A DNA stretch of 64,000 bases from Gammaproteobacteria bacterium. GTDB lineage: Bacteria > Pseudomonadota > Gammaproteobacteria > Steroidobacterales > Foliamicaceae. The stretch lies in NCBI GenBank assembly GCA_963666765.1, contig OY762933.1, forward strand, positions 129,814 to 193,813. Direction: 5' to 3'. The notes beneath the pieces are model-generated. The model had not been told where the DNA came from. It saw only the letters and a program-made list of their open reading frames with translations, and searched no databases. The stretch's first letter is position 1. Each line of letters begins with the position of its first letter. Below, piece by piece: positions 9,813-64,000 of this stretch. Both the position numbers and the translations under genes were made by a program.

Positions 9813-9910
9813 GCTTGAGTGAACCTCGTAACGGTACACTCATCAAGTTACTTTGCTTTCCAGTTTTCCTCTTGGCGCAGTCAAGCGTCAGCATCCTCAC
9901 CCAGTTCCCA

Positions 9911-10653: not shown

Positions 10654-10920
10654 ATGCCACGTACGACAACTTTGACGGTTCGGCTTGGTGGTGCGCTTCG
10701 CGACTTCGTGTCGGCCAATGTTGGGGAGAACGGCTCTTACGAGAACGTGAGCGAGTATGTGCGTGATCTGATCCGGCGCGACAAAAAGCGGTCGGAGCGC
10801 GAGGCTTTCGAGCGATTGAAAGCTGAATTGACCCGCGCCTTTGCAGCACCGGATGATTCGTATCATCCGCTTTCCGCATCCCACGTTATTGCCAGGAATA
10901 AGGCTCGGGTCGAGCCATGA
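10654..10920 (+). CDS. parD: ParD/CopG-type antitoxin
   Basis: ATG 10654 gives MPRTTTLTVRLGGALRDFVSANVGENGSYENVSEYVRDLIRRDKKR (ParD/COG3609-type RHH). Overlaps the toxin start by 4 nt. Confidence 0.85.
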   Translation: MPRTTTLTVRLGGALRDFVSANVGENGSYENVSEYVRDLIRRDKKRSEREAFERLKAELTRAFAAPDDSYHPLSASHVIARNKARVEP

Positions 10921-14809: not shown

Positions 14810-15721
14810 ATGTGGCAACCGAAGCTCATCATGATGAACGGCAAACTCATGCCGTTGGAGGACGCGCGCCTGCACCCGCTTTCCCTTGCCGTCACTTATG
14901 CGGCAACGGTTTTCGAGGGCGTGCGCGCCTACCATCTGCCCGACAGCGGCCAGTTCGCGTTGTTCCGGCTGGACGACCACCTGCGCCGCCTGCAGGTGGG
15001 AATGAAGCTGATGCGGTTCGACGGCGGCTACGACGCGGAGTATCTCACCGGGTGTCTCGCGCGGCTGATCCGGGCCAACGAGCCTGATTCCGACGCCTAT
15101 ATCCGGCTGCTCGCCTATATCGAGGGGACCGGATTGCTGGCAACGACCGGCCCGATCGGCTTCACGGCCGCCGTCATGCCGAGGAAGACCCCGGAGTTCG
15201 CCGCCACCGGTATGAGCCTGGGCGTGAGTTCCTGGCAGCGCCTGGCGGACAATGCCAGCCCGCCGCGGATCAAGACTACGGCCAATTACGTGAATGCCCG
15301 GCTGGCTGCCCACCAGGCCAGGGCGGACGGCTACGACGGCGCGCTGATGCTTACGCCGGATGGAAGAGTATCCGAGGCGCCGATCGCATGCTTCTTCATG
15401 GTTCGCGACGGGAAACTGATCACGCCGAGCACCGACAGCAACATCCTGGAGAGCATCACCCGGGACACGATCCTCACGCGCTACCTGGAGCTCACGGGCG
15501 AACCCGCCGAGGTGCGCACGATCGATCGCAGCGAGCTCTATTTCGCCGAGGAGGCCTTCCTGTGCGGCACCGGCCAGGAAATTCTGCCGGTCACTTCAAT
15601 CGACCGCCTGCCGGTCGGCGATGGCAAGGTCGGTCCTTTAACCGACAGGCTGCGGCAGGACTACTTCGACCTGGTTCGGGCCAGGACAAGCGACCACCCG
15701 GAGTGGCGAACGCTCATTTAG
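14810..15721 (+). CDS. class IV aminotransferase (branched-chain/D-amino-acid type)
   Basis: 303 aa. MNGKLMPLEDARLHPLSLAVTYAATVFEGVRAY and ...EAFLCGTGQEILPVTSID fit fold-type IV PLP enzymes. The start could be 14831. Confidence 0.85.
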   Translation: MWQPKLIMMNGKLMPLEDARLHPLSLAVTYAATVFEGVRAYHLPDSGQFALFRLDDHLRRLQVGMKLMRFDGGYDAEYLTGCLARLIRANEPDSDAYIRLLAYIEGTGLLATTGPIGFTAAVMPRKTPEFAATGMSLGVSSWQRLADNASPPRIKTTANYVNARLAAHQARADGYDGALMLTPDGRVSEAPIACFFMVRDGKLITPSTDSNILESITRDTILTRYLELTGEPAEVRTIDRSELYFAEEAFLCGTGQEILPVTSIDRLPVGDGKVGPLTDRLRQDYFDLVRARTSDHPEWRTLI

Positions 15722-17673
15722 TCGGCCCGCTCCAGGCGCTCGTCCACCGCATCCGCGCCAAGCTGGCTCGCTCTCATGACAGCCGCCTGCGCTTCGTCGA
15801 GCAGGCCTTTCTCCAGCGCGAAGTCGATGTACTCATCGGCATTCAGGGCGCCCAGGGGCACCGGCCGTTCCTCGCCCAGGACCGGGGGAGACGGCGGCCC
15901 GCTGTAGCCGCTCAACTGGTAGCCGGCGCTGGTCTCGGAGTGATAGGCGCCGAGCGTCGGAATATTGTCCATGTCGGTATACAGGACCGTTATATTGCCG
16001 CCGTAGCCCGCGTACTTGCCGGCATTGCGATAGAAGAACCAGATCCCGTCGTCGCGCGTGATCGTGGTCTTGAGCGTGTCCGAGCGCACCGGGATGGGAT
16101 AGTGGGTGAACTCGTCGGCTACCTGGTCGTATTTGCTCAGGTAATTGTCGTTGGCGGCCCAGATGTTGTCCTGGCTGTCGGCTTCCGCGTTGTAGGTGGC
16201 CGCATAGGGCACGTCCATCTTGCGCCGGAAGACTTCACCCGTGTCCGGGTCCACCCGGTACAGAATCGCGTTGTCGAACCCGCGGTTGCCCCAGGTGCCG
16301 GCCCAGATCATGCCCCTGGAATCGACGCCCAGGCGGCGTATCGAGGTCGCGGCGTCATCCTCGACCAGGGGATAGTGCCGGAATTCCTCGGTCTCGGGAT
16401 CGAAACGCGTAACGCCGCCGTTGTGATAGTCGGCGAACCACACCTTGTCCTTGTGGTCGACGATGATGCCGTACGGGCGGCTGCGCAGCACCGGCACCTC
16501 CCAATAGACGATGGAGTCGGTTGCCCGGTCCCACTTGCCGAGTGCGCCGCCGCCAAGCAGCGAAAGCCAGAGATTGCCCTTGGAATCGAAAATCTGCGTA
16601 TTGCTGCCCAGCGCACGGTCCTCGGCCACCCAGTGGTCCACCTTGCCGGTCTTCGGATCGAGATGGCGAACGACATCTCCTGAATACCAGACCGTGCCGT
16701 CAGTCTGGTCCACCGCTATGCCGTGTCCGCCGCCGTGGCCTTCGAACGCCGTCTGTTCGCCGGTGCGCGGATCGAACTTCACGATGCAGCAGGCGGTGTA
16801 GGCGAGCCAGACGTTGCCGTCCAGGTCGAAGTCCACCTGGTGCGCCCACGGCCAGACATCGTATTCGTCCGACTCGTGGTAGATGTACTCGATGTACATC
16901 GCCTTCTTGAGCGCCTCGAGGTCCAGTTCAGGCTCCCGGGTGAGCTGCACCACCACAGGCGGCCGGTCCTCCGGAAAATGTTCCGCCAGGTAGTCGACCA
17001 GTATGTCGCGGTCCTCGGGCGGCAGGTATTTCGGATCCATCAGTGTCGCCTTGCCCAGGCGGCCGAATCCCGGTCCCTTGTGCATCCGATCGACACTCAC
17101 CGCCCAGGCGGCCTTGTTCTTCGGCGCCCGCCCGCCCGAATAGGCGCGCGGGTAGTTGTAGGGGATGAAATTGACGTTGTGACAGCCGTGGCAGGTGCGC
17201 TCGAGGATCTCACGGCCCCGACCCGGCGGATAGACCTCGTCGTAGGGGAGTATTTCGGCATTGGGATAGTCCACGCCCCCGACGTAGTCGACAATCGGAC
17301 CAACGCCCGTCAGCGAGAAATCCACTTCGGCCTCATCGCCGGGCCCCAGGTCGATGCTGACCGTCTGCGGGTCGAAGCCTTCCAGCTGGTCGATCGCCGG
17401 CCGTATCGTCACGTCGTAGCTGCCGGGAATCATCTTGACGGCCCGGTATTCGCCGTCCACCACGAACACCGTATAGGCGAGGTCCTTGTCGTTATTGAAG
17501 GCATAGACCACCGGGAGCAGTCCCTCAATGGTCCCTTCCACATTTCCGGACAGGCGCGCCAGCCCTTCGTCCTCGGCGGATGCGGGCCCGCCGGGGCCGG
17601 ACGACTGTTCGGAGCAGCCGATCAACGCCAGCAGGCAGAACCCCGCTGTCGTCAGTCTCGTGAGTGAATTCAT
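15718..17673 (-). CDS. lipoprotein: Ig-like + CXXCH + Vgb-like beta-propeller (paralog B)
   Basis: 651 aa. Lipobox FCLLALIGC. CHGCH at 17179..17193. Colinear with paralog A. Its stop overlaps the stop of the class IV aminotransferase (TTAG). Confidence 0.8.
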   Translation of the reverse strand: MNSLTRLTTAGFCLLALIGCSEQSSGPGGPASAEDEGLARLSGNVEGTIEGLLPVVYAFNNDKDLAYTVFVVDGEYRAVKMIPGSYDVTIRPAIDQLEGFDPQTVSIDLGPGDEAEVDFSLTGVGPIVDYVGGVDYPNAEILPYDEVYPPGRGREILERTCHGCHNVNFIPYNYPRAYSGGRAPKNKAAWAVSVDRMHKGPGFGRLGKATLMDPKYLPPEDRDILVDYLAEHFPEDRPPVVVQLTREPELDLEALKKAMYIEYIYHESDEYDVWPWAHQVDFDLDGNVWLAYTACCIVKFDPRTGEQTAFEGHGGGHGIAVDQTDGTVWYSGDVVRHLDPKTGKVDHWVAEDRALGSNTQIFDSKGNLWLSLLGGGALGKWDRATDSIVYWEVPVLRSRPYGIIVDHKDKVWFADYHNGGVTRFDPETEEFRHYPLVEDDAATSIRRLGVDSRGMIWAGTWGNRGFDNAILYRVDPDTGEVFRRKMDVPYAATYNAEADSQDNIWAANDNYLSKYDQVADEFTHYPIPVRSDTLKTTITRDDGIWFFYRNAGKYAGYGGNITVLYTDMDNIPTLGAYHSETSAGYQLSGYSGPPSPPVLGEERPVPLGALNADEYIDFALEKGLLDEAQAAVMRASQLGADAVDERLERAD

Positions 17674-36868: not shown

Positions 36869-37077
36869 CCCCGGGAGCGAGGGCGTTCGGTGCGCGGCGA
36901 TTCGATCCCGCCCCTCTTCGCCCCCTTCTTCCGCGAGACGCATGGATCCATCCATGGAGCTCGGTTCCGCCATCCATGGCTCACACGCTCCCGGAAGAAG
37001 GGGGCGAAGAGGGGCTACGGCCGGGCGAGAGGGCATCCCGCCTTCGCGGAGGGCGGTACGCCTTCCTTCCTGGGAGG
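36869..37077. repeat. composite REP/MITE-like element with a 24-bp perfect inverted repeat
   Basis: REP-type units at both ends (CCCCGGGAGCGAGGGCG...; ...GCGGAGGGCGGTACGCCTTCC). They flank perfectly complementary arms at 36910..36933 and 36992..37015. The 58-nt loop carries CCATCCATGG twice (36948..36957, 36970..36979). Confidence 0.7.
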
Positions 37078-37854
37078 CTATTCGGAAAATTGGAGGAGGA
37101 CGCCGGGAGCCTGGACAGTCAGTTTGATCGCGTCGCGCTGGTACAGCTTGCCGGCCGCGGCGAGCGTGTCAGCGGTCTGATCTAGGCTGCGGGTTTGCAG
37201 GTGCAGGGTGGTAAAGCCGCTGGAATCGTCTTCAGCCTGCCTGATTTCCAGGTATTCCGGCGCGTCCGCGCGGCTCAGCGGCCTGAACCGGCGCTCGGCA
37301 TCGCCCGTGTCGGTGGCGTGCAGCGTCATGCCGGTCAGCTCGACCGCGCCATTGGGATGCGCGTTCATTTCCTGCCAGAACACCAGTTCCGGCGTCAGGT
37401 GCTGCACGTAGCCGCACAGCGCTTCGGGAAAGCTCTCGGACGGCAGCGCCAGCCAGCGAAAGCGCGCCACAGCGCCGTCGGCATAGTGCAGCGCCCGGCT
37501 GGCCTCGCCCACGGGCGTGGGCTCCTGTCCGGCAGTTACCGCCTGCTGCCGGATCGCGCCGATATCCGCGGCGCGAAGGATCAGGATGCGAATGGCCGGA
37601 TCGTCCTCCAGCCAGGCGGCCAGGTGGTGGTCGGGCCCGGGCCGCGTGACCTCGCTCAGTTCCACGTAGGTCGAGCCGAAGATGAAATGCGCACTCTGCT
37701 GGCCGAGGCTTCGTTCGCTGCCGTCGGGAGCCGAGCCCATCAGCTCTACGGGGTCGGTAACCCGAAAGCCCAGCGCCCGGAACGCAGCCACGGTGCCGTG
37801 AATGTCCGGCCCCACCAGGCCGACGTGATCGATATCGAGCGCGATCCGCGTCAA
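37078..37854 (-). CDS. VOC/glyoxalase-like domain protein
   Basis: I prefer TTG 37854, which gives (M)TRIALDIDHVGLVGPDIHGTVAAFRALGF. It overlaps the upstream MFS stop as TTGA. The track ORF extends to 37926. Confidence 0.65.
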   Translation of the reverse strand: MTRIALDIDHVGLVGPDIHGTVAAFRALGFRVTDPVELMGSAPDGSERSLGQQSAHFIFGSTYVELSEVTRPGPDHHLAAWLEDDPAIRILILRAADIGAIRQQAVTAGQEPTPVGEASRALHYADGAVARFRWLALPSESFPEALCGYVQHLTPELVFWQEMNAHPNGAVELTGMTLHATDTGDAERRFRPLSRADAPEYLEIRQAEDDSSGFTTLHLQTRSLDQTADTLAAAGKLYQRDAIKLTVQAPGVLLQFSE

Positions 37855-41553: not shown

Positions 41554-41622
41554 CCCCGTGAGCGAGGGCGTTGCCCTCACGGCGTCCCGCCCTCCACGAA
41601 GGCGAGACGGCTTCGCTCCCGG
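41554..41622. repeat. REP-like element (copy 7)
   Basis: CCCCGTGAGCGAGGGCGTTGCCCTCACGGCGTCCCGCCCTCCACGAAGGCGAGACGGCTTCGCTCCCGG. Hairpin GTGAGCGAGGGC/GCCCTCAC plus shared modules. Confidence 0.7.
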
Positions 41623-54250: not shown

Positions 54251-55048
54251 ATGCGCGAATTCAATTACTACCGCGCGGGTTCCGTGCGCGACGCGGCCAA
54301 GCGCCTGAGCGCGAGCGGGAACGCCATGCTGCTGGCCGGCGGAATGACACTGTTGCCGGCGCTCAAGATGCGCCTGAATCAACCCGGGGAACTGATCGAC
54401 CTGGCCGATCTCGGCGAACTCAAGGGCATCAGGCTGAGCCGCAAGGGCGCGCAGGTCGGCGCCATGACCACCCATGCGGAGGTTGCGGAGAACGTGGAGT
54501 TGCGCGCCGCGATTCCGGTCCTGCCGCATGCGGCGGAATCGATCGGCGATCCGCAGGTGCGCAACCGTGGAACGCTGGGCGGTTCGCTGGCCAACAACGA
54601 TCCCGCGGCCGACTACCCGGCGGTTGCGCTGGGACTGGGCGCCACCATCATCACCAACAAGCGCAAGATTTCCGCGGACGACTTCTTTACCGGGATGTTC
54701 GAGACGGCGCTGGGACGCGGAGAGATGGTCACCCAGGTGCTGTTCCCGATACCGCAGCAAGCGGGCTACGCGAAGTTCCCCAATCCCGCCACGCGCTACG
54801 CGCTGGTGGGCGTTTGCGTGGCGCAGTTCAAGACGGGTGTTCGGGTGGCCGTGACCGGCGCCGGCGCATCGGTTTACCGCCTGGAGGATTTTGAGGACGC
54901 GCTGAGTGACGAGTTCTCCGAAGTCGCGCTGGACGGGTTGACCGCTTCCTCGGCGAGCCTGAACGACGACATGCATGCTGGCGCCGATTACCGTGCGCAC
55001 CTGGTGGGCGTCATGGCCCGCCGCGCCGTTGCAATGGCCCTCGACTGA
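54251..55048 (+). CDS. coxM: FAD-binding medium subunit of a molybdo-flavoenzyme
   Basis: ATG 54251 gives MREFNYYRAGSVRDAAKRLSASGNAMLLAGGMTLLPALKMR, typical of CoxM/FAD_binding_5. Confidence 0.9.
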   Translation: MREFNYYRAGSVRDAAKRLSASGNAMLLAGGMTLLPALKMRLNQPGELIDLADLGELKGIRLSRKGAQVGAMTTHAEVAENVELRAAIPVLPHAAESIGDPQVRNRGTLGGSLANNDPAADYPAVALGLGATIITNKRKISADDFFTGMFETALGRGEMVTQVLFPIPQQAGYAKFPNPATRYALVGVCVAQFKTGVRVAVTGAGASVYRLEDFEDALSDEFSEVALDGLTASSASLNDDMHAGADYRAHLVGVMARRAVAMALD

Positions 55049-55057
55049 GGTTCGGCG

Positions 55058-55115
55058 CTCCTCCGGGAGCGAAGGCGTCTCGCCTTCGACGAGGGCGGAC
55101 GCCCTCGCTTCCGGG
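55058..55115. repeat. REP-like element (copy 10)
   Basis: CTCCGGGAGCGAAGGCGTCTCGCCTTCGACGAGGGCGGACGCCCTCGCTTCCGGG. Two hairpins nested in a GGGAGCGA/TCGCTTCC outer stem. Confidence 0.7.
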
Positions 55116-55124
55116 CAGGTGGAT

Positions 55125-56018
55125 ATGAATATGAACGCGTTACCGGAGTCCGTGGAGCAGGTTCACGGTCTGCTGGAAGGGCAGGACTACATCGCCGGCG
55201 AGCGCCTGAGCACTGCCGTTTTTCTGGCGCTAAGCCTCAAGCGCCCGCTTTTCCTGGAGGGAGAGGCCGGTGTCGGCAAGACGGAACTGGCCGTCGTGCT
55301 GGCCGCGGCGCTCAAGCGCCGCCTCATCCGCCTGCAGTGCCATGAGGGCCTGGACCTGGCCGGGGCGGCGTACGAATGGAACCATGCGCGGCAGATTCTG
55401 GCCATTCGTCTGGCCGAGGCGGAGGAGCGCGTGGACGATATGTCCGGGGACCTCTATTCGCGCGAGTTTCTGATCGAACGCCCGCTGCTCGAGGCGCTTT
55501 CGCCCTGTCCGGAGGGACCGCCGGTGCTTCTGGTTGACGAACTGGACCGGGCCGACGAGCCGTTTGAGGCCTATCTCCTCGAATTTCTGTCCGATTTTCG
55601 TATGAGCATTCCCGAACTGGGAGAGATCCGGGCGCCTGAGGCGCCCATCGTGGTGCTGACTTCCAATCGCACCCGCGAGGTGCACGACGCGCTCAAGCGC
55701 CGCTGCCTGTACTGCTGGCTGGACTACCCGACGCAATCCGCCGAGGACCGCATACTTCAGGCCCGCGTGCCGGGACTGCCCGATGCCCTTCGCGCCAGAG
55801 TTGTCGGCTTCGTCCAGGGCCTGCGCAAGGAAGGCCTGTTCAAGTCGCCGGGCGTGTCGGAGACGCTGGATTGGGCGGAATCGCTCATGGCCATGGGCGC
55901 CCGCGAAGTCGATACGAAAGCGGTCTCGGAAACGCTCGGCGCCCTGCTCAAGTACCAGGAGGACCTGGAGCAGGTCGACGAGTCCGTTGTCGACCGGCTC
56001 CTCGCAGCCTCAGTGTGA
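55125..56018 (+). CDS. coxD: MoxR-family AAA+ ATPase (CoxD-like)
   Basis: ATG 55125. Walker A GEAGVGKT, Walker B VLLVDELDRA. Confidence 0.9.
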   Translation: MNMNALPESVEQVHGLLEGQDYIAGERLSTAVFLALSLKRPLFLEGEAGVGKTELAVVLAAALKRRLIRLQCHEGLDLAGAAYEWNHARQILAIRLAEAEERVDDMSGDLYSREFLIERPLLEALSPCPEGPPVLLVDELDRADEPFEAYLLEFLSDFRMSIPELGEIRAPEAPIVVLTSNRTREVHDALKRRCLYCWLDYPTQSAEDRILQARVPGLPDALRARVVGFVQGLRKEGLFKSPGVSETLDWAESLMAMGAREVDTKAVSETLGALLKYQEDLEQVDESVVDRLLAASV

Positions 56019-57184
56019 TCAAGCGGGACGCTCTCGCTCCCGGGAGGAGCGACCCGGCCCTGTCGCATCGCATCGTCAGTTTCGTGCGCACGCTGCGCGC
56101 CGCGGGTTTGCCGCTGGGCGTGGGCAAGAGCGCGCTGGCGCTTGAGGCCGCGAAGCGCATCGACATCGGCAACCGCGCCGAGTTCTCCGCTGCGCTGCGC
56201 TCGGTCCTGACCGTCAGTCCCGCCGAGGGCGTGCTGTTCGATTGCGCTTTTCCCATGTTCTTCGGCAACTCCGCGGCCTTTGCGCGGCTTGGCGACCTGC
56301 ATGAGCTCGGTCTGCGTTCTCTGGGCGACGTCAAGCCCCCGCCGGGAGCCCTGCGCCTGCTGCGCGCCATGGACAGCGCATCCAACCTGATTGCCGCGCC
56401 CGGCGCCCAGCGGGCCATTGCGGGCGCCGGCTATTCGCCGCAGGAACGGCTCGCCTCCAGGGACTTCGCCCAGATGACGCCGGAGGAACAGGACCAGGCG
56501 CGCGAACTGCTGCGGCGCGGCGTGCTCTGTCCCAGGCGCAAGGGAAGGCGATACAAGGCCGCCGCGCATGGAGCGCGGATCGACCTGCAGGCCACTTTGC
56601 GGGCGGGCCTCGCGTCCGGCGGCGAGCTGGCGCAACTGAAGCGCAAGACGCGCCGTGACGAACCCATGTCGCTGGTGCTGCTGTTCGACGTTTCAGGCTC
56701 CATGACCACCTATGCACGCATGGCCATCCATTTCGCCCACGCGCTGTGCAGCGCCCGCCGCAACGTCGAAGTGTTCGTTTTTGCAACCCGCCTGACCCGG
56801 GTGACCCGCGAACTGCGCGGGCGGGATGGGGACGTGGCGACCGCCGCGGCGCTCGCGGCCGCCCCGGACTGGGAAGGGGGCACGCGCATCGCGTCCGCCA
56901 TTGGCCAGTTCAACCGGCAATGGTCGCGGCGGGTGCTGGCCCGGCCCGGCATGGTGCTGCTGTTCAGCGATGGCCTGGAGCGGGCCTACGTCGAAGAACT
57001 GCGTTTCGAGGCGGCGCGCCTGCGGCGATCCTGCAAGCGCCTGGTATGGCTGAATCCGCTGCTGGGCTATAAGGGTTTCCAGCCGCGGGCCCGCGGCGTG
57101 CTTGCGCTGCTGCCCGCCGTGCACGAGCATCGCGCGGCCCATAACGTCGAAAGCCTGCTGGGGCTTGCCGACGCGTTAGAGTAG
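56015..57184 (+). CDS. coxE: VWA-domain protein (CoxE-like)
   Basis: GTG 56015 overlaps the coxD stop (GTGA). MIDAS motif LLFDVSGSM. The last ~68 codons are duplicated at 62962..63174. Confidence 0.85.
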   Translation: MIKRDALAPGRSDPALSHRIVSFVRTLRAAGLPLGVGKSALALEAAKRIDIGNRAEFSAALRSVLTVSPAEGVLFDCAFPMFFGNSAAFARLGDLHELGLRSLGDVKPPPGALRLLRAMDSASNLIAAPGAQRAIAGAGYSPQERLASRDFAQMTPEEQDQARELLRRGVLCPRRKGRRYKAAAHGARIDLQATLRAGLASGGELAQLKRKTRRDEPMSLVLLFDVSGSMTTYARMAIHFAHALCSARRNVEVFVFATRLTRVTRELRGRDGDVATAAALAAAPDWEGGTRIASAIGQFNRQWSRRVLARPGMVLLFSDGLERAYVEELRFEAARLRRSCKRLVWLNPLLGYKGFQPRARGVLALLPAVHEHRAAHNVESLLGLADALE

Positions 57185-57279
57185 GCCGCTACACTTGCGC
57201 TGTAGAGTGGAGAACCATCAAGATCAGCACATTTCCATTGCCATAGTCACCGGAATGCCCCACAAGCTGGAATTTCCTG

Positions 57280-58929
57280 CTATTGATATAAGAATGCCGC
57301 GGCACTGGAAACTCGGTTCAGTGTGGAGCGCACCTCGTATAGCAAATCGTCTGCTGGAATATCAGGGTCTTGACCGGCCATCTCGTATCCCAGTGCCATT
57401 GAATATTCCGAGAAGGCAATTTCATACGACAAACGTCGAAACGCCAGATCCTCCGGACCACCCGTCTTGAGTGCTTTAGCTACGACTGGATGATCAAGAT
57501 TAATAATGATCCGCAATGCTGCATCGTCATATACAGATCGTGCTTCGTCAGAACCCAGGTTTTCGTAGCCAACGCTGAAGCCGCCTTTTGGTTTCCGGCG
57601 TTTTCCTGATCCTCCCGATGGTGATACGCTATCGACACCCGCCGGATTTGGTAAGCCGCTTGCTTGCAATTGAGGATTGGGGCGGTTTTGTGGTTTCCTC
57701 GACTCGGTGACGGTTGTCATTTCAGGCTTGTCCACATCGCCCGGAGTGTCAATTCCTTGGATCCAAGATGAATGGTCCTCCCCAGCTGATTGTCCAGAGC
57801 CAAACAGGGAGGTTGCCGAACCCGCTTTTGATGTGGCTGAGCGAATTTCCGCTAACCGATCTTGCACTCGCCGAAAGTCATCGTTCAGGACATCAGAGAT
57901 CTTATTTGCTTCCGCCGCCAACCTACGTGCCTGTTCTGATCGCTGTTCATTCCTATAGTCCTCAGCTAATTGTTTTCGAACCCTCTCCAGGTTTGCACCG
58001 AGAAAGCCGACCAAGACACGAACAACCGGGTGCTCTGGGTTTAGTTGTAAGGAGCGGGAATCGTCATAGGGCTCAATCCGAGATTCGAAAGTCTCTATTG
58101 CCGGCACGTCAATTTCGCCAAACAAATAGGAGCCGTGATCCTTCCGCGTTATTCCACAATCTTCGATTCCCACTAAATTCCCGACGCCTGCCGAGATGCG
58201 GATTCCCCGATCGAATTCTTCCAGAGGTATTTTCGAAACCTTGACAATTAGTTCAACATCGCCAATGACTTTGCTCTGCTGATCTGATGGTCGAAACGAA
58301 TGAGTTGCCGCCGTGTCTGGTTCTTTGTAGTCGCAGACATGGTCGTTGACAGCCACAAAAGGCGCTGAACTCCGAAACACCTGAAGGTGCCGTTCAATGT
58401 AATCTACTATCGCTGGCATCGGAATCTTGTTTACAAAGATGTCCGAAATCGTGACTAACGTACCGTTGGGAAGTGTCGTTGGCTCGCCAGAAACAATATG
58501 CGTAACAGGAATGTCTCCCCCATCCGAAGCTTCGATATCCTCGCGCGTGAGTGCCGTGACGTTGCGTAATCCGTCTCGGCGGGTCTCGATTTTGAGGCAG
58601 TTACCAATTCCGAATGCGGCAGATTTTCCCGTGCCGAATTTTCCTCTGCCAGGTCGTCCTCTGGCTCGCTCGATATTCTCCGCATGCATGGTGAAAAAAT
58701 GCTCCAGCCCCTTTTGGTCCATGCCGCGGCCGTTATCGTCTATTTGGATGACCTTCTTTCGCGGAAAGAGCGTCACCTGCACGCGCGGCGATACGCCACG
58801 ATCGAGGTATTGCAAACTGTTAACTACGTATTCCCAAATGACGGCGGGCACATTCTTGAAAGCCGCCGCGGACGAGAGTAAATCGCGTCCGACATGTGAC
58901 GTTAAAGCTAGCGGACTATTGGTATTCAT
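57280..58929 (-). CDS. GHKL-superfamily (MORC/Hsp90-type, HATPase_c_3-like) ATPase with coiled-coil and disordered basic region
   Basis: 549 aa. Bergerat motifs: I WEYVVNSLQY (E..N), II IQIDDNGRGMD, III GRGKFGTGKSAAFGIG. Charged helical stretch (RKQLAEDYRNEQRSEQARRLAAEANK), low-complexity S/G/P/K region, then an uncharacterised ~110-aa C-terminal domain. Confidence 0.75.
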   Translation of the reverse strand: MNTNSPLALTSHVGRDLLSSAAAFKNVPAVIWEYVVNSLQYLDRGVSPRVQVTLFPRKKVIQIDDNGRGMDQKGLEHFFTMHAENIERARGRPGRGKFGTGKSAAFGIGNCLKIETRRDGLRNVTALTREDIEASDGGDIPVTHIVSGEPTTLPNGTLVTISDIFVNKIPMPAIVDYIERHLQVFRSSAPFVAVNDHVCDYKEPDTAATHSFRPSDQQSKVIGDVELIVKVSKIPLEEFDRGIRISAGVGNLVGIEDCGITRKDHGSYLFGEIDVPAIETFESRIEPYDDSRSLQLNPEHPVVRVLVGFLGANLERVRKQLAEDYRNEQRSEQARRLAAEANKISDVLNDDFRRVQDRLAEIRSATSKAGSATSLFGSGQSAGEDHSSWIQGIDTPGDVDKPEMTTVTESRKPQNRPNPQLQASGLPNPAGVDSVSPSGGSGKRRKPKGGFSVGYENLGSDEARSVYDDAALRIIINLDHPVVAKALKTGGPEDLAFRRLSYEIAFSEYSMALGYEMAGQDPDIPADDLLYEVRSTLNRVSSAAAFLYQ

Positions 58930-58931
58930 TG

Positions 58932-59540
58932 CTATTCACCTTTACTCACTAACTGCGACATGTCTGTTAGGAAACTCGAAATCTCAGGGTCATTGCTAAA
59001 TAAATTCAACAATCGATCGATTTTTAGACTCAGCATATCGGGCTTCGTATAACTATCAATCCTAAATATTTCTTTGGCCTGAGTAGCCTTAACGGATTGC
59101 GGATTCTCCTGCCATTGTCGCCATGCTGCGGACGACTGCAGTCTCTTGGATTCTCGATCGGTCCGTACCGTATCGACTGAACCAGCACGACGAGATTCAT
59201 TGGATCCCAACGAAAAATCACATTCAAGTAGATTGAGGTTGGCCTCAATCCACTTGTTGCCTGTGGCTGTAAGCGCCCAGCCTTTCCGCCCTGATCCTCT
59301 CAATAGTGTTCCCTTGTCGGGCTTCTTTGCATTCGACAAGCAAACCCGGACTAACTCAAGATTTATCTGTTTCGGGTACTTGCGCCAGCCGAATCGACGT
59401 GGTGCAAGTTCGAAAGCCTTGATGGCAACATCTTCCGTGTCAATGAATCTCTGAGCGCCACCTAGCTGGTAGACTGCTAGTGTGACTATTTCTGATTGTC
59501 CAATCTCTTTTGTCAAGTGTTTATTTGAATATTTTGACAT
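58932..59540 (-). CDS. hypothetical protein, possible winged-helix N-terminal domain; co-operonic with the GHKL ATPase
   Basis: 202 aa. The stop TAG lies 2 nt before the ATPase ATG, with AGGTGA inside its 3' end. The N-terminal ~100 aa (EIVTLAVYQLGGAQRFIDTEDVAIKAFELAPRRFGWRKYP...GWALTATG) looks wHTH-like by eye only. Confidence 0.6.
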   Translation of the reverse strand: MSKYSNKHLTKEIGQSEIVTLAVYQLGGAQRFIDTEDVAIKAFELAPRRFGWRKYPKQINLELVRVCLSNAKKPDKGTLLRGSGRKGWALTATGNKWIEANLNLLECDFSLGSNESRRAGSVDTVRTDRESKRLQSSAAWRQWQENPQSVKATQAKEIFRIDSYTKPDMLSLKIDRLLNLFSNDPEISSFLTDMSQLVSKGE

Positions 59541-59590
59541 GGCAATATACTATAGCATCTACTTCAAGTATGTTTCTTGGGATGTAAACA

Positions 59591-61861
59591 TTGACAAATG
59601 GTCGGGCCTGGGGCTTACCAAGCGTCCAGCTACTTCCCGCATCTCTAGGAAAACTGTGGGCTGGCGAAGAGCTGCCGTCTTGGGTAGTTACGCTAGGGCA
59701 ACTACCGTCGGGTGCAAGAATAGAGGACCTATGTAGACCACTACCCCTTGAACTTGAAGCAAATCACTTTGGTCGTTTGGTGAGGTTTGTTCTTAATCTC
59801 GTGCGAGGGCGAATCGGATCGATTGACTCAATCCAAACCGTTGAAACTGATTTTTTCGCAGGACTTCGACCGGAAAAAGTACCGTGGTCCCGAAGAACTG
59901 AGAGATGCTTGCGACAAGCAGGCCTGATGGAACGGCCATCTGACCTATGTCGGCTCACCTTTGGTGACTTACTACGGATTCCAGGTATCGGAATTCGTTC
60001 CGCACTTGAATTTGCGGTCATGCTCGAGATTTATTCTCGACGCGCATCTGAAAGAACTGGAGTCGATACTATTGAGATGATTGATGAGAAAGAACGGAGA
60101 CGGGAACTTCTAGTGCAAGAAGCGAGTGATCTTGATCAGCCGAAGACATATGTCTTGACTCAAGATTCCGATCAGCAGGTCTTGACTCTAGACGGGGCGC
60201 CAAAAGAGCAACAAGAGGACATATTAATTGACGCGGCTATTCAGCCATGGGCAGATCAGATTAGCGGTAGTGATCGGCGTTTTTCGGATCTTCTTGGTTC
60301 TAGTTCTGTCGTATTGATTGAGCGCATCGAAGACGCGTTGGATCGAGATAATGCTGCCGAAGCCGATGCTCTTGCCCGTATTCTCGGCCCGTTAAAGGAA
60401 AGAATTGAGAGGATCGAATCTCTATCCTTGGAAGACGCGTTGCTGGAACTCTTCAATGCGGCCACTGGAGACTCGCGCGACCGAAATCGTGAATTGATTC
60501 GGCGGTTTGGATGGAATGGTGAGCCACCAGAAACGCTCCAGCAAGTTGGTGATCGCCTACGCGTAACGCGTGAGAGAGTCCGTCAAATTCAATCCCGAAT
60601 CGTTCGCAATCTACCAACGCATTCCGTGTTTCTGCCCCAGCTGCAAAGCGCGGTTGATGTCTTGGAAGAAGTTAGCCCGATAGCAATTGAAGATGCCGCC
60701 AAGTTGCTCCAGGAACGAGGAATCAGTCGGCGTCCTTTCCACCCGAAGAGCGTCATAGTTGCAGCTAGCGATTGCAACATTGTGACGCCCTTAAGAATCC
60801 AATCGATCCGCAGAAAGAAGATTGTCACAGCCAAAACTGGCGATAGAGTGGTAAGACGCTTGGCCTCTATAGCACGTGCGCAGAGCGGAGCAAGTGGCGC
60901 AACTGATGTGCTTGGAGTTTTGGACCAAGCCATGAAAGAAGAACTGATCTTTGAAGAAGAGCGCGCCGCCCGGTTGATTCGCAGCCTTCCGGACCTCCAA
61001 TGGCTTACAAACGATTGGTTTTGTGTCCGTTCAGTCCCAATTGAGCGAAATCGTCTTCGCAATGTTGCCCGGAAGATGCTCAGCGTAACCTCACCAATCC
61101 ATGCGGGAAAAATCCGAGCAGGTATGCGAAGAACTGTGACTTGGCGAAACGCAACTTGGAGCCAACACCGTTGGCCTATGCGTGCGCCACCCGAAGTTGT
61201 TGTTCGACAATTTCTTAAGAATCATCCGGAGTTTACGGTTGAAACTGAAGGCTTGGTCTATCCTGCAGAAGAATTGGACTACCGGAATGAGCTTGGCGCT
61301 GCAGAATGCCACATGGTTGATGCTATTCGTTCTACGCCTGCCGGAGTATTGGATCGACAATCAATTCGAGATAGTTGCATAAGAAAGGGGGTCAATCCGC
61401 ATACGCTAGAAGTGAGTTTGACCTACAGCCCGGTAATAGAACATCTTGGCGTTAACCTTTGGGCGATTGCAGGGGCGAACGTTGATCCCGCCGCCGTCGA
61501 AGCCGTTAGGAAAGCGAACGCTTTGCGGCCGAGGGAGAAACGCATAAGCGATTTCGGTTGGACCGATAAAGGAGAAATATGGATTTCTGTAATTATCCCC
61601 TCCTACCATACGTCATCATTTGTCTTCGGCGTGCCAGGCGGAGTCAAGAAGTTCCTAGTTGGCCAACGGTTTAGAGCAAGGGATGACTTGGGGAGAGCGT
61701 ATGGAGATGTTGTCGTGAACCCTGAAGGTACTGCCTATGGGGCAGGCCCCCTGCTTCTTCGAAAGGGTGCTGACTCGGGAGATATAGCCCTGTTCAGATT
61801 TGATCTGTCAGGAAATATTGTCACCATTAGCGTTGGTGGTGATGAATTATCAGAGGGTTGA
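59591..61861 (+). CDS. large protein with RNAP alpha-CTD-like HhH module and sigma-70 region-4-like HTH; C-terminal ~400 aa uncharacterised
   Basis: 756 aa from TTG (no in-frame ATG near the 5' end). Residues ~99-146 WSRRTERCLRQAGLMERPSDLCRLTFGDLLRIPGIGIRSALEF resemble alpha-CTD (..VRSANCLK.AGI....DL......ELLKI.NFGKKSL.EI). Residues ~301-341 ELIRRFGWNGEPPETLQQVGDRLRVTRERVRQIQSRIVRNL match sigma r4.2 (TLEEIG..FGVTRERIRQIE.KALRKL). No sigma region 2 is seen. Confidence 0.7.
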   Translation: MTNGRAWGLPSVQLLPASLGKLWAGEELPSWVVTLGQLPSGARIEDLCRPLPLELEANHFGRLVRFVLNLVRGRIGSIDSIQTVETDFFAGLRPEKVPWSRRTERCLRQAGLMERPSDLCRLTFGDLLRIPGIGIRSALEFAVMLEIYSRRASERTGVDTIEMIDEKERRRELLVQEASDLDQPKTYVLTQDSDQQVLTLDGAPKEQQEDILIDAAIQPWADQISGSDRRFSDLLGSSSVVLIERIEDALDRDNAAEADALARILGPLKERIERIESLSLEDALLELFNAATGDSRDRNRELIRRFGWNGEPPETLQQVGDRLRVTRERVRQIQSRIVRNLPTHSVFLPQLQSAVDVLEEVSPIAIEDAAKLLQERGISRRPFHPKSVIVAASDCNIVTPLRIQSIRRKKIVTAKTGDRVVRRLASIARAQSGASGATDVLGVLDQAMKEELIFEEERAARLIRSLPDLQWLTNDWFCVRSVPIERNRLRNVARKMLSVTSPIHAGKIRAGMRRTVTWRNATWSQHRWPMRAPPEVVVRQFLKNHPEFTVETEGLVYPAEELDYRNELGAAECHMVDAIRSTPAGVLDRQSIRDSCIRKGVNPHTLEVSLTYSPVIEHLGVNLWAIAGANVDPAAVEAVRKANALRPREKRISDFGWTDKGEIWISVIIPSYHTSSFVFGVPGGVKKFLVGQRFRARDDLGRAYGDVVVNPEGTAYGAGPLLLRKGADSGDIALFRFDLSGNIVTISVGGDELSEG

Positions 61862-62136
61862 TAAGGAAGGAGTTAAGGACATCATTCCTTTCGAGGAGAA
61901 AAACCCAATGCTCCACCGTGCCGCTAAGCGTCGCTCGCTATCCGCCCAACTGCTTGCCGCTGATCCGGTTTGGCCGTACCCGTTTCGCAATCCCCCAAAA
62001 CAAGAAGAGCTCGAAAATACGACCGGACATTTATGTGCTCTAAAATCGGACAAGTTTTGTGCTCTCTACACGAGCAAGGAAAGGCGAGCGTTGCCGCTAT
62101 ATGGTGGAACCCCTATAATCCGGAAAGACGGACGCA

Positions 62137-62511
62137 ATGTTGAAACCTCTCGAATGGATTGGGTCAAGCAAAGCGGATCTGAAGCAATTTCCCGATTCCG
62201 TGCAGGATCGCATGGGCTTCGCGATCTACCAGGCGCAGGCGGGTCTAAGGCACCGCGACACCAAAGTGCTGAAGGGCTTCGGTTCCGGTGTCCTGGAGAT
62301 TGTCGTGCGCCACGACGGCAATGCGTACAGGGCGGTTTATGTCGTCCGTTTCGAAGCTGCGGTCTATGTCCTGCACGCCTTCCAGAAGAAGGCGAAGCGG
62401 GGTATCGTCACACCCAGGAAGGAAATCGAGCTGGTCCGGAACAGGCTCGGTGCGGCCAAGAGGCATCACCGCGAAACGCTTGAGGGAAGACAAGACAATG
62501 AACCCATCTGA
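62137..62511 (+). CDS. RelE/HigB-like toxin (phage Gp49-like type)
   Basis: 124 aa. MLKPLEWIGSSKADLKQFPDSVQDRMGFAIYQAQAG...VLEIVVRHDGNAYRAVYVVRFEAAVYVLHAFQKKAKRGI matches this toxin family's consensus as I recall it. Confidence 0.85.
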   Translation: MLKPLEWIGSSKADLKQFPDSVQDRMGFAIYQAQAGLRHRDTKVLKGFGSGVLEIVVRHDGNAYRAVYVVRFEAAVYVLHAFQKKAKRGIVTPRKEIELVRNRLGAAKRHHRETLEGRQDNEPI

Positions 62512-62836
62512 TTCGAACGTGGAGGCCAGCAGCGGCAACGTTTTTGCGGACCTGGGGTTCCCCGGGGCCGATGCCCATCTTCTAAAGGCGGAACTCGTCA
62601 GCCGCATCGACGGCCTCGTGCGCCGGCGTGGCATCAGCCAGGCTGCGGCCGCGCGGCTGCTCGGCCTTGCCCAGCCGGACGTCTCGCGGCTGCTCAGGGG
62701 CGACTTCCGCGAGTATTCACTGGAGCGCCTGTTGCGCCTGCTGACTACGCTTGGCTGCGACATCGACATCGTTATCCGCCCGCAGCGCTCGGCAACGGGC
62801 GGCAGGCTGCGCGTGGCCGCTGCCGACACGGGCTAG
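62498..62836 (+). CDS. XRE-family HTH antitoxin (HigA2-like)
   Basis: ATG 62498 gives MNPSDSNVEASSGNVFADLGFPGADAHLLKAELVSRI...GISQAAAARLLGLAQPDVSRLLRGDF. Overlaps the toxin 3' end by 14 nt. Confidence 0.85.
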   Translation: MNPSDSNVEASSGNVFADLGFPGADAHLLKAELVSRIDGLVRRRGISQAAAARLLGLAQPDVSRLLRGDFREYSLERLLRLLTTLGCDIDIVIRPQRSATGGRLRVAAADTG

Positions 62837-62961
62837 ACGCGCAAGGGTGAGCGAAGCGAAGGCAGGGACGTCTTTCAGGAGTCAGGTTGGACTGCGTGCC
62901 GCCCGGAATCGTGCCCCGCGAGCTTGAACTGCCGCATAGGCACTATCACAACTCCGTTACC

Positions 62962-63174
62962 GAGCGGGCTTACGTCGAAGAACTGCGTTTTGAGGCGGCG
63001 CGCCTGCGGCGATCCTGCAAGCGCCTGGTATGGCTGAATCCGCTGCTGGGCTACAGGGATTTCCAGCCGCGCGCACGCGGCGTGCGCGTGCTGCTGCCCG
63101 CCGTGCACGAGCATCGCGCGGCCCATAACGTCGACAGCCTGCTGGGGCTTGCCGCCGCGCTGGAGGCTTGTTGA
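62962..63174 (+). pseudogene. orphan duplicate of the coxE 3' end (island-distal repeat)
   Basis: Reads ERAYVEELRFEAARLRRSCKRLVWLNPLLGYRDFQPRARGV..LLPAVHEHRAAHNV.SLLGLA, versus the same string at the end of coxE. About a dozen nt differences by eye. No upstream VWA body. Confidence 0.8.
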
Positions 63175-63231
63175 AATGCAGCCTGCTTTCGTCCGCCTTG
63201 AACGCTGCAACACCTGCAACGGAACGGCCAT

Positions 63232-63606
63232 TCAGGTCGTCAGCGTGAGTCCCGAGTTTTCCAGCCGGAGGAAGTCCGCTTCATTGGCGGTGGCGAGGGC
63301 CGCGCCGTAAAACAGGGCCGCGGCCGCGATCATGCAGTCAGGCAGCGAACCGCGGCGGCGACCTGATTCGTTGAACAGGCGGGCCGCGATTGCGGCCTGC
63401 TCCTCTGTAAAATTGTGGCGCTGTCCCACGACTTCCCCGGCGAATTCCAGTTCATCCGGCGTGAGTGGCCCGCATAGCAATTCGGCCCAGGCAACCGCGC
63501 TCATACTCAATGGTTCGCCGGCTTCGACCCACCCACGCAATCTCCGGTCTTCCGGCGACCCGTGGGTAAGAGCCCGGATCAGGAAGCTGGTGTCCAACTG
63601 GATCAT
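63232..63606 (-). CDS. vapC: PIN-domain toxin
   Basis: 124 aa. MIQLDTSFLI... (first acidic residue), ...LATANEADFLRLE (last acidic residue). Overlaps the antitoxin stop by 4 nt. Confidence 0.88.
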   Translation of the reverse strand: MIQLDTSFLIRALTHGSPEDRRLRGWVEAGEPLSMSAVAWAELLCGPLTPDELEFAGEVVGQRHNFTEEQAAIAARLFNESGRRRGSLPDCMIAAAALFYGAALATANEADFLRLENSGLTLTT

Positions 63607-63893
63607 TGCGCTTTCGAGAGCACCCGCTTGCCGGTTTCGAGGCGCTCATCGTTTACTTCCTGTTCCCACCCCGAGAGATCAACCCCCCGCTCCCGCACGG
63701 AGGATTGCAGCCGGTCCAGCGCGTGCAAGGGGCCTGTTTTCTCCGGGCGGGTACTGGAAGCTGCAATGCGAATGGCCCTTCGCAGGACTTCAGACTTGGA
63801 AACCCTCCATCGCTGCGCCAGCGCTTCAAGCGTACGGACTGAGCCCACATCGAGGGTGTAGGTTGACTTGATAGTGGGTATGGCCATACTCAA
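63603..63893 (-). CDS. vapB: RHH/CopG-type antitoxin
   Basis: 96 aa from TTG 63893 (or ATG 63887). ...LEALAQRWRVSKSEVLRRAIRIAA is a ribbon-helix-helix signature. Confidence 0.8.
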   Translation of the reverse strand: MSMAIPTIKSTYTLDVGSVRTLEALAQRWRVSKSEVLRRAIRIAASSTRPEKTGPLHALDRLQSSVRERGVDLSGWEQEVNDERLETGKRVLSKAQ

Positions 63894-63909
63894 AGTATAT
63901 GGCCATATA
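63878..63909. promoter_or_regulatory. tandem palindromic operators at the vapB start
   Basis: GTATGGCCATAC (63878..63889) and TATATGGCCATATA (63896..63909). Both are perfect palindromes sharing the core TATGGCCATA, with centres 19 bp apart. Confidence 0.6.
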
Positions 63910-64000
63910 TATGCTCGTCAATCTACATTGCCGTATCGGATTGGGGCCGGGCAATTGGGCTACCATTGAGGGTAATGTTTATCAGCATGCACATTCTGCC

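Follow-up and report, generated by a model that had tools for sequence, protein, structure and literature searches.

A duplicated coxE end around foreign DNA

The question raised by this locus is how the 3′ end of one coxE gene came to stand on both sides of a block of compositionally foreign DNA. The window (the whole stretch of DNA analyzed, 64 kb) contains a 204-nt ungapped direct repeat (56978-57181 and 62962-63165) with 14 mismatches (93.1% identity) and longest mismatch-free runs of 62 and 45 nt; the initial annotation, which had put the recurrence of the coxE end at about 12 mismatches with runs of ~60 and ~44 nt, was close to these values. Across the 64-kb window there are exactly two occurrences of the 62-nt core, against zero expected from shuffles. 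No coxE body was found upstream of the distal copy, as had been noted, and the DNA directly upstream of it (62837-62974) is a piece of a different chromosomal gene, here termed X. In the following, L numbers denote related loci, donor-type alleles are L001-like, and resident- or recipient-type alleles are L018-like.

55125..56018, plus strand: coxD-like MoxR/AAA ATPase gene (Pfam AAA_5/AAA; start codon read), ~98% identical to L018, recipient-type backbone
56015..57184, plus strand: intact coxE (VWA_CoxE; Pfam PF05762, 1.2e-57), with a GTG start overlapping the coxD stop; last ~285 nt donor-type
56978..57181, plus strand: proximal repeat copy (coxE codons ERAYVEEL...ADAL), donor haplotype over its whole length
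62962..63174, plus strand: distal coxE 3′ fragment (′coxE), donor haplotype at positions 1-78 and resident (L018) haplotype from 93 to the end, with the L018-type ..LEAC* stop
63232..63606, minus strand: vapC (PIN; Pfam PF01850), 99% identical to the L018 VapC, the resident (displaced) allele
63603..63893, minus strand: vapB (RHH antitoxin; Pfam PF01402), resident allele

The G+C content was 0.651 over 1-56977, 0.501 over 57185-62136, 0.627 over 62137-62961, and 0.616 over 62962-64000. The fall from 0.69 to 0.50 on entering the inter-repeat DNA marks this cargo as foreign by composition, and both the abrupt drop between the copies and the subsequent rise over a toxin-antitoxin (TA) pair had been correctly described from the sequence, down to the exact G+C counts of the 60-nt lines at 56941, 57481, and 59041 (40, 24, and 24). 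Beyond the distal copy, the adjacent small PIN toxin and RHH antitoxin genes at 63232-63893 constitute a type II TA pair by their family domains. This flank is colinear with L018 up to the end of the window (97.8% identity over 63166-64000), and the gene order at L018 predicts a higA remnant and a full-length X on the 3′ side of vapB, past position 64000.

Related loci with and without the insert

The comparison with an empty site, which the initial annotation had proposed, showed that a genuine empty site exists and that, relative to it, the segment is an indel. At L018, coxE is followed by 57 nt, vapC-vapB, and X; the same 57 nt separates coxE and vapC sequences in the window, and the backbone at 47.8-56.86 kb is ~98% identical between the two. 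Such an empty site accompanies integrative islands and is equally expected for any repeat-flanked insertion or deletion. The event could be a gain in the lineage of the window or a loss in L018 via recombination between the repeats.

The left edge of the segment is not an insertion junction, because L009, L010, and L011 carry the same low-GC three-gene cassette directly after coxE, at the same place, with no second copy of the coxE end. Indeed, 56067-61876 of the window is colinear with L009 and L010 at 88.7%, through coxE into the cassette. The initial annotation had named relatives with the same gene order and no repeats as evidence against its own reading, and L009/L010 and L011 are such relatives. 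The closest cassette relatives, L016 and L017 (97-98%), have a cassette running into an intact gdhA, the gene 3′ of the cassette in relatives; the cassette-gdhA order is therefore ancestral. Gene X lies downstream of coxE in L001-L008, L011, L018, and L019. In this clade, whose members are uncultured gammaproteobacteria, the coxE-X interval forms a hypervariable hotspot in which the defense or TA cargo differs by lineage. No genome was found with the exact donor allele (coxE, cassette, gdhA remnant, higBA, X), and the proteins of the window have no record elsewhere that would offer an independent copy of the junction. All of the relatives come from metagenome assemblies, and close strains differ from one another at the locus.

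A chimeric junction between X and coxE

The right-hand part of the insert consists of the following features.

61874..61922, plus strand: gdhA remnant (DIIPFEEKNPMLHRA; tblastn E = 0.02-0.04, at the syntenic position; aligned with L016, L017, L009, and L011)
62137..62511, plus strand: higB-like toxin gene (Gp49/DUF891; Pfam PF05973, 4e-22)
62498..62836, plus strand: higA-like antitoxin gene (HTH_37; Pfam PF13744, 5e-24)
62837..62974, plus strand: X′, decayed remnant of the 5′ part of conserved gene X (blastn, alignments, tblastn)
62962..62974, plus strand: X′/′coxE junction, a 13-nt microhomology GAGCGGGCTTACG (GAGCGGGCyTACG)

The adjacent Gp49 toxin and HTH_37 antitoxin genes (62137-62836) likewise have the arrangement and domains of a type II TA pair. 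At L018, a remnant of the last ~20 higA codons aligns upstream of X, and 62764-62863 of the window matches this higA-remnant/X-start region. X′ has lost its start codon, carries a ~97-nt internal deletion at ~62874, and is truncated at codon ~71; its part at 62875-62974 is homologous to X codons ~38-71. In blastn, X′ matched the X genes of L018 (86%, 1.6e-24), L008 (84%), and L005. The distal repeat copy is a chimera, joined to X′ at a 13-nt microhomology that is common to X (..TERAY..) and coxE (..LERAY..), which gives the joining of non-homologous sequences at a short microhomology (62962-62974) characteristic of allele stacking by displacement or of the type produced by homology-facilitated illegitimate recombination (HFIR). 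The identity of X′ and the higA 3′ end to L018 is 82-86%, compared with ~98% for the backbone, so this tract is not an in-situ copy.

Allele tracing and the proposed history

Site-by-site allele comparison located two switches between lineages.

56858..56899, no strand: left homologous crossover interval p, L018-type upstream and L001-type downstream
63040..63053, no strand: right homologous crossover interval q, within the distal copy

L018-private alleles occur in the window at 56855-56856 and L001-private alleles from 56900, so that the switch at 56857-56900 has private alleles on both sides and lies in the conserved upstream gene, as a displacement/HFIR anchor crossover would. In the distal copy, an L001-private T is present at repeat positions 27 and 78, followed by L018-type sequence from position 93 and an L018-private A at 114. 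The L001-like tract accordingly extends from ~56900 to ~63039, starting upstream of the repeat and crossing the chimeric junction, with L018-type DNA on either side. Donor-type alleles set in 78-121 nt before the repeat begins and give way to resident ones 78-92 nt into the distal copy; because these limits differ from the repeat ends, the exchange points are homologous crossovers and not att ends. The retained ′coxE(93-204)-vapCB is L018-type, and the proximal coxE end, the cassette, and X′ come from other lineages. An old allele kept downstream with a stub of the conserved gene, together with modules of different lineages, is again the pattern of displacement. The L018 coxE has an unusually divergent tract at the equivalents of 56900-57060, so the resident haplotype over that stretch may have differed from that of L018.

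We consider it probable (roughly two chances in three) that an alternative coxE-X allele of ~6.15 kb entered through homologous crossovers in coxE and was stacked before the retained ′coxE-vapCB, with no need for a recombinase. The 204-nt direct repeat is best read as a by-product of this allele stacking, without a site-specific recombinase. As for the order of events and the state of the donor, the starting chromosome would have been L018-like, with the resident allele coxE-vapCB-(higA remnant)-X, and the incoming tract from another lineage, with an L001-like coxE end and an L016-like cassette, would have replaced ~150-200 nt of the resident coxE. From left to right, this tract carries the 3′-terminal ~285 nt of coxE, the low-GC cassette, the gdhA remnant, higBA, X′, and the initial ~78 nt of another coxE 3′ end, and it is bounded by p and q (56858-56899 and 63040-63053), both homologous crossovers within coxE. 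The outcome would be a new allele in front and the old one kept behind a conserved-gene stub. The X′/′coxE junction is of the type that RecA-independent illegitimate recombination produces. Since donor-type DNA lies on both sides of it, the junction was most likely present in the donor beforehand, where a tandem duplication or a concatemer would have created it; alternatively, HFIR may have taken place in the recipient, and gene conversion may then have altered the initial ~90 nt of the distal copy.

Alternative explanations

The initial annotation had regarded the segment as an integrative island, decayed or mobilized in trans like a satellite, for which the coxE 3′ end served as attB and which brought its own substitute end. 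Several of its elements stand: the segment is an indel against an empty site, its cargo is foreign, and the coxE end was imported, the functional 3′ end being L001-type from ~56900 and the resident L018-type end lying downstream. Low-GC cargo bracketed by a direct repeat of a gene 3′ end, the empty site at L018, and the residence of the cassette in tyrosine-integrase islands at L012 (by tRNA-Asn) and L014 would all suit such an element. Site-specific integration at att sites, however, is contradicted by exchange points that do not coincide with the repeat ends, by a coxE/cassette junction present in relatives without the repeat, such as L009/L010, and by an inner distal flank made of a piece of the neighboring gene X and a gdhA remnant, that is, ancestral local gene order rather than element DNA. 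A 204-nt, 93%-identical att without an identical core at its ends would also be atypical. The ORFs between the repeats encode no integrase or transposase domain, as had been reported, and a tblastn search of the 64-kb window for such genes with eight proteins from related loci gave no match; no tRNA gene was found in the window, nor any Rfam feature. A decayed or satellite island is thus unsupported, and we regard the integrative-island explanation as very improbable. The same holds for an in-situ tandem duplication from the coxE 3′ end to the X 5′ end in the window's lineage, with later divergence and content replacement in each copy. The junction of X to coxE is its signature, but the copies differ in both content and lineage: one holds the cassette and higBA and the other vapCB, their coxE ends carry L001-private and L018-private alleles, respectively, and X′ is 14% diverged from the L018 X against ~2% for the flanks, so several extra events would be required.

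A Campbell-type integration deserves somewhat more attention, though we consider it unlikely. Here, a circle running from a position a in coxE to a position b in X would have been excised from the donor by illegitimate recombination at the microhomology and integrated by one RecA crossover in the 204-nt homology, at repeat position ~78-93. The distal copy is exactly the hybrid expected, with a donor 5′ and a resident 3′ part, and a circle yields the b/a junction directly. The donor-type stretch at 56900-56977 would then stem from a homologous import of its own, or else the resident carried L001-like sequence there from the start, as the divergent L018 tract over 56900-57060 could be L018-private; in that second case, p would record an earlier event unconnected with this one, and Campbell integration in its simple form would suffice. 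Nevertheless, the L001-private alleles at 56900 and 56902 and 13 more donor-type sites lie upstream of the repeat, where the circle could not carry them, and the proximal copy is donor-type at positions 1-78, whereas a Campbell product should be resident-type there. A Campbell origin would thus require the same donor lineage to have contributed twice, in separate events. An assembly artefact, in which co-occurring haplotypes coxE-cassette-...-X and coxE-vapCB-X were concatenated and polishing mixed the repeat alleles, also appears unlikely. The metagenomic assembly of all relatives, the polymorphism among close strains, and the lack of any second record of the junction speak for it, but the microhomology linking the two non-homologous genes, at 13 nt, is shorter than overlap or k-mer assembly errors would need, X′, as a decayed pseudogene (no start codon, 97-nt deletion), is only 86% identical to the L018 X, unlike a strain-level bubble, and the allele blocks are clean rather than interleaved.

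Comparison with known systems

Displacement with retention of the old allele, and HFIR, both have precedents in PMC5361080. That paper describes the orphan C-terminal tips of Rhs/CDI systems and the orphan immunity-gene arrays of the Vibrio cholerae T6SS (citing Jackson 2009 and Poole 2011). The mechanism put forward in this literature is HFIR, for which it cites de Vries & Wackernagel 2002, Prudhomme 2002, and Meier & Wackernagel 2003; PMC3240628 also treats HFIR. Like those arrays, our locus has a conserved upstream gene as its homology anchor, a new module placed before the old one, an old module kept behind a stub of the conserved gene's 3′ end, modules from other lineages, and no integrase. 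It differs in that a housekeeping-type accessory gene from a cox/xanthine-dehydrogenase-family cluster, rather than a toxin gene, provides the anchor, the cargo comprises a candidate defense cassette and TA pairs instead of toxin tips and immunity genes, a single displaced unit is visible, and the junction captures a piece of the flanking gene X with donor-type DNA on both sides. With HFIR the locus shares one homologous anchor crossover (p, in coxE), inserted foreign DNA, and, near the anchor, a join made at a short, G+C-rich microhomology. A join formed in the recipient, however, classically leaves a wholly resident-type distal copy, whereas here the first 78 nt past the join are donor-type, so either later gene conversion or a donor-borne junction is required. 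Integrase islands in gene or tRNA 3′ ends are similar in the direct repeat of the target 3′ end, the compositional island, and the occupied/empty polymorphism; our locus departs from them in having no recombinase gene in the window, exchange points away from the repeat ends, a left junction common to repeat-less relatives, and ancestral chromosomal sequence on the inner right flank.

The cassette genes

The low-GC part of the insert holds three genes.

57280..58929, minus strand: 549-aa GHKL ATPase (HATPase_c_3)
58932..59540, minus strand: 202-aa protein, N-terminal winged-helix domain, C-terminal half helical
59591..61861, plus strand: 756-aa multi-DNA-binding-domain protein (sigma-70 region 4)

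The resemblance of the GHKL protein to BbrUII/HgiDII restriction enzymes and MutL is confined to the N-terminal ~200 aa, and none of the 608 representatives of its family (at 50% identity) is named. The 202-aa protein had no match in Pfam, NCBIfam, or PDB sequence searches and none of its 169 homologues is named; its AF2 model (pLDDT 88.6) gives wHTH regulators as best, weak fold matches. Neither protein matched PADLOC models (for the GHKL protein at E ≤ 0.01, the MzaB model included). The 756-aa protein combines a faint alpha-CTD-like HhH, sigma-70 region 4, tandem winged helices, and a C-terminal B3/pseudobarrel-like domain.

Two described systems were compared with the cassette. In the MZA anti-phage system, which also includes a Z1 and an AIPR protein, the sigma-70-like MzaA (NCBIfam NF041931, PADLOC MzaA model) is paired with the MutL-like ATPase MzaB, and here too a gene for a sigma-70 region-4 HTH protein accompanies one for a MutL-type GHKL ATPase, the 756-aa protein locally matching the C-terminal ~100 residues of MzaA. 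This local match reached 36.1 bits against a cut-off of 800, the locus has no Z1 or AIPR genes and no MzaB match, and the cassette consists of three genes, including the winged-helix protein; MZA was therefore rejected. The CapK/CapS pair, presented in the abstract of PMC13373217 as a small anti-sigma-factor-type kinase with a STAS-domain repressor, was rejected as well: the ATPase is a 549-aa HATPase_c_3/MutL-type protein, and the model of the 202-aa protein shows a winged helix and further helices but lacks a STAS fold. The three-gene cassette is a conserved, uncharacterized unit that occurs in defense islands and may have a defense role, and the same cassette is found inside the tyrosine-integrase islands of L012 (beside tRNA-Asn) and L014.

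Duplication of the coxE 3′ end and gene content of the interval

The 3′ end of coxE occurs twice in the window, as the initial annotation had claimed, with positions 56978-57181 (proximal copy) recurring at 62962-63165 (distal copy) as a gap-free match of 204 nt containing 14 mismatches (93.1% identity), in which the longest runs of full identity are 62 nt and 45 nt. The 62-nt core is found two times within the window, where shuffled sequences are expected to contain none. The claimed drop in G+C is equally real: the three quoted 60-nt lines contain exactly 40, 24, and 24 G+C, and G+C is 0.65 upstream, 0.50 across 57185-62136, and ~0.62 from 62137 onward. The genes of this region are listed below.

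Genes in and around the duplicated coxE end
55125-56018, + strand, coxD-like AAA ATPase
56015-57184, + strand, coxE (VWA_CoxE)
57280-58929, - strand, 549-aa GHKL ATPase (HATPase_c_3)
58932-59540, - strand, 202-aa protein, no family
59591-61861, + strand, 756-aa protein with sigma-70 region 4
62137-62511, + strand, Gp49/HigB-like toxin
62498-62836, + strand, HTH_37 antitoxin
62962-63174, + strand, distal coxE fragment
63232-63893, - strand, vapC-vapB

No recombinase was found among the ORFs between the repeat copies, which agrees with the earlier statement that no integrase, transposase, or excisionase is visible there. The integrases and transposases of related loci matched nothing anywhere in the 64-kb window when used as queries, scans of the region retrieved no tRNA and no Rfam family, and exact-sequence look-ups for the window's GHKL protein, VapC, and HigB returned no record. 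Between a gdhA remnant and higB, ~215 nt (61923-62136; G+C ~0.52) matched none of the compared loci and contained no recognized feature.

The coxE-X interval in relatives

A genome scan with CoxE yielded eight loci, all in uncultured Gammaproteobacteria, of which one bears the label Candidatus Foliamicus; further loci were reached via homologues of the 756-aa protein. In three relatives (L009, L010, and L011), the same three low-G+C genes (hereafter the cassette) come right after coxE, with an extra AAA_14 gene between in L011, and are followed by gdhA and then by X, a conserved gene of ~280-300 aa belonging to no family. A second copy of the coxE end is absent from all three, and the alignment of window positions 56067-61876 with L009 is colinear (88.7% identity) and unbroken across the coxE/cassette boundary. 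The initial annotation had read the repeat copies as att sites and had named relatives with the same gene order but no repeats as the observation that would speak against this; L009, L010, and L011 share the coxE-cassette order without the repeat, and the left copy does not hold up as an integration junction. L010 was also considered as a third right-hand junction and rejected, since the genes called downstream in it are miscalls over gdhA and its structure is identical to that of L009. The closest cassette relatives, L016 and L017 (97-98% identical), both run on into an intact gdhA, of which the window holds only a ~50-nt remnant (61874-61922).

At least seven arrangements of the coxE-X interval occur among these loci, and the interval is a recombination hotspot for defence and toxin-antitoxin (TA) genes.

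Forms of the coxE-X interval
coxE-X
coxE-gdhA-X
coxE-AAA14-gdhA-vapCB-X
coxE-AAA14-cassette-gdhA-X
coxE-cassette-gdhA
coxE-vapCB-X
the stacked arrangement of the window

The presence of an AAA_14/DUF4143 ATPase gene between coxE and the next gene varies among relatives (L007 11230-12387; L011 6456-7613; L019 11735-12913), a further indel at this hotspot. A second hotspot lies 1.2 kb upstream, where two relatives (L007 3533-9967; L009 125-6347) have a type III restriction-modification (RM) system inserted exactly at the coxD/coxE boundary, with a PIN gene sitting between res and mod; in the window, the two genes overlap by 4 nt at this point.

The empty site and the exchange points

A locus found through VapC (L018; VapC 99% identical to that of the window) carries coxG-S-L-M-D-E, the same 57-nt spacer, vapC, vapB, a ~20-codon higA remnant, and X. 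Its identity to the window is ~98% over 47.8-56.86 kb and 97.8% over 63166-64000, colinear to the last base; L018 thus has the same type of backbone as the window but only one allele, which is not stacked. The claim of an insertion relative to an empty site is upheld, since in L018 coxE and the 57-nt spacer lead directly into vapC-vapB. The higA end in L018 (reverse complement, ~10790-10858; equivalent to window 62770-62836) preserves the last ~20 codons in frame (…RPRRSATGGRLRVAVADTG*) between vapB and X. This implies that one TA pair overwrote another in the L018 lineage, with vapCB taking the place of higB and the greater part of higA.

The alleles of the window across coxE were traced by comparing it, one site at a time, against L018, L001, and six further loci. 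Up to 56857, the window carries L018-type alleles, including L018-private ones at 56855-56856, and from 56900 to the coxE stop it is L001-type at 44 of 47 informative sites, with L001-private alleles at 56900, 56902, 57004, 57055, 57088, 57102, and 57151. This switch places the left exchange point at 56858-56899, 78-121 nt upstream of the repeat, and bears out the proposal that incoming DNA supplied a replacement coxE end. In the distal copy, positions 1-78 share the donor haplotype of the proximal copy (L001-private T at 27 and 78), and L018-type alleles (L018-private A at 114) take over in positions 93-204, the LEAC* stop, and all sequence beyond it, so that the right exchange point lies within the distal copy, at 63040-63053. 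The donor-type tract thereby spans ~6.15 kb (~56900 to ~63039) with recipient-type DNA at both sides, and beyond the coxE end contains the cassette, the gdhA remnant, higBA, a decayed 5′ piece of X (X′, 62837-62974), and the X′|′coxE junction. Both the 3′ end of higA and X′ show just 82-86% identity to L018, against ~98% for the backbone, indicating that the tract was imported rather than copied in situ.

The coxE of L018 has its own divergent tract of ~160-200 nt (reverse complement, ~9650-9860; window 56900-57060), 17-20% diverged from every close relative, with many alleles private or L008/L007-like and flanks ~98% identical to the window; the tract has the look of a short piece imported into coxE in a recombination event of its own.

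A chimeric distal copy and its possible origin

Immediately before the distal copy, ~100 nt (62875-62974) show homology to X, the gene downstream of coxE in the relatives, over its codons ~38-71. The ORF at 62887-63174 is therefore a fusion of X (...LELPHRHYHNSVTERAY) to coxE (ERAYVEELRFE...). The two are joined within a 13-nt stretch common to X and coxE (GAGCGGGCyTACG), and X′ is a pseudogene with a lost start codon and a ~97-nt deletion. Such a downstream-to-upstream join at microhomology is a hallmark of illegitimate recombination, whether from a tandem duplication or a circle, and not of an att site; with a piece of chromosomal gene X as the inner flank of the distal copy, the att-site reading fails on this side as well.

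In the simplest account, the X′|′coxE junction would have pre-existed in the donor, formed at microhomology by tandem duplication of the coxE-3′-to-X-5′ segment or within a concatemer of it, and the tract would have entered an L018-like chromosome via two homologous crossovers within coxE, replacing ~150-200 nt and shifting the resident ′coxE-vapCB allele downstream. Almost equally good is a variant of homology-facilitated illegitimate recombination (HFIR) with an anchor at the left exchange point, in which the join was made in the recipient and gene conversion then altered the initial ~90 nt of the distal copy; HFIR in its pure form is downgraded because donor alleles flank the junction at both sides. 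Plain Campbell integration of a circle running from a position in coxE to one in X accounts for the hybrid distal copy but leaves the donor alleles upstream of the repeat unexplained unless the resident was already L001-like there, and is likewise downgraded. Since L018 is highly divergent over 56900-57060, a resident of that type is conceivable, and the circle retains a low probability. An assembly chimera of the contig is unlikely, as the 13-nt join and the decayed X′ speak against it. The difference could reflect either a gain in the window's lineage or a loss in that of L018, the latter through recombination between the two repeat copies. A metagenome scan with HigB retrieved only relatives of ≤73% identity, none with the donor allele.

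The architecture of the window fits the "displacement" model, which was described for Rhs, CDI, and T6SS loci with HFIR as a proposed mechanism (PMC5361080; PMC3240628); here, this type of stacking occurs at a defence/TA hotspot beside a metabolic operon of uncultured gammaproteobacteria. The locus is best described as an ordinary, if neat, recombination scar at such a hotspot: the insertion and the incoming coxE end of the initial annotation stand, and its integration mechanism does not. A textbook-looking island footprint (gene-end duplication, G+C drop, empty site) can arise without an integrase, here from homologous and microhomology recombination between alternative hotspot alleles. Island-calling pipelines and excision PCR would misread this locus, and RecA-mediated deletion between the 204-nt repeats would likewise yield circles and empty sites.

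The three-gene cassette

The most interesting by-product is the conserved, unnamed cassette, whose order and orientation are maintained in seven independent loci, with G+C of ~0.49-0.51 in six (window, L009, L011, L012, L014, and L015) and 0.587 in L013. It is found in the company of RM, Gabija, TA, and integrase/IS genes.

Cassette neighbourhoods in four relatives
L012: tyrosine integrase adjoining tRNA-Asn; IS3-family copies at the flanks
L013: tRNA-Arg ~1.4 kb off
L014: Gp49 TA, PIN-TPR protein, tyrosine integrase, Gabija GajA/GajB
L015: IS66, HNH, type II RM with Vsr

The GHKL protein belongs to an unnamed family (608 representatives at 50% identity), had no PADLOC match, and resembles the BbrUII/HgiDII restriction enzymes and MutL only in its N-terminal ~200 residues. 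The 202-aa protein, whose 169 homologues are all unnamed, is confidently modelled (pLDDT 88.6) as an N-terminal winged helix with a helical half. The 756-aa protein (model pLDDT 84) combines a faint alpha-CTD-like HhH with sigma region 4, followed in the model by a SelB-C-like run of winged helices, predicted to be tandem, and a B3-like C-terminal barrel that would resemble B3/EcoRII-N. The matches from fold searches on the cassette proteins were confined to single domains (winged helix, SelB C-terminus, and B3) and included no catalytic domain; PDB sequence searches matched only sigma region 4 of the 756-aa protein and gave no hit for the GHKL or the 202-aa protein. Scanning viral contigs with the 756-aa family profile returned sigma-region-4 matches and no full-length homologue, giving no sign of a phage-borne cassette. 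The match of the 756-aa protein to MzaA is only local (36 bits versus a cut-off of 800), and a literature search on MzaA/MzaB gave nothing useful. CapK/CapS came into consideration since it, too, pairs a GHKL protein with a small DNA binder, but was rejected on domain content.

A defence role is suggested by gene neighbourhood only. That the cassette is an undescribed anti-phage system and that the conserved coxE 3′ end serves as a recombination anchor, letting these symbionts swap and stack defence alleles without mobile-element machinery, is a tentative proposal that we hold to be rather doubtful; in this capacity, the target that the cassette senses or acts on would be DNA or the transcription machinery. 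The cassette is a reasonable candidate for experimental defence screening.

In L012, the cassette is enclosed by two inverted copies of what appears to be one IS3-family element (ORFs of 123 aa and 326 aa; 4397-5745, - strand, and 15440-16788, + strand) and adjoins tRNA-Asn and the tyrosine integrase, which suggests a composite-transposon-like or island context for the cassette outside the window. In L015, a 526-aa ORF without a Pfam or PADLOC match directly follows the cassette (5335-6915) and could either be a further part of it or belong to a separate system next door. Elsewhere in the window, a REP-like, G+C-rich palindromic intergenic element (…GGGAGCGAAGGCGTCTCGCCTTCG.CGAGGGCGG.ACGCC…) is present in at least three copies (37023-37085; 41581-41620, - strand; 55065-55106) and also in L007 (15190-15252); the copy in the coxM-coxD spacer renders 55022-55211 unalignable with L001 and L018.
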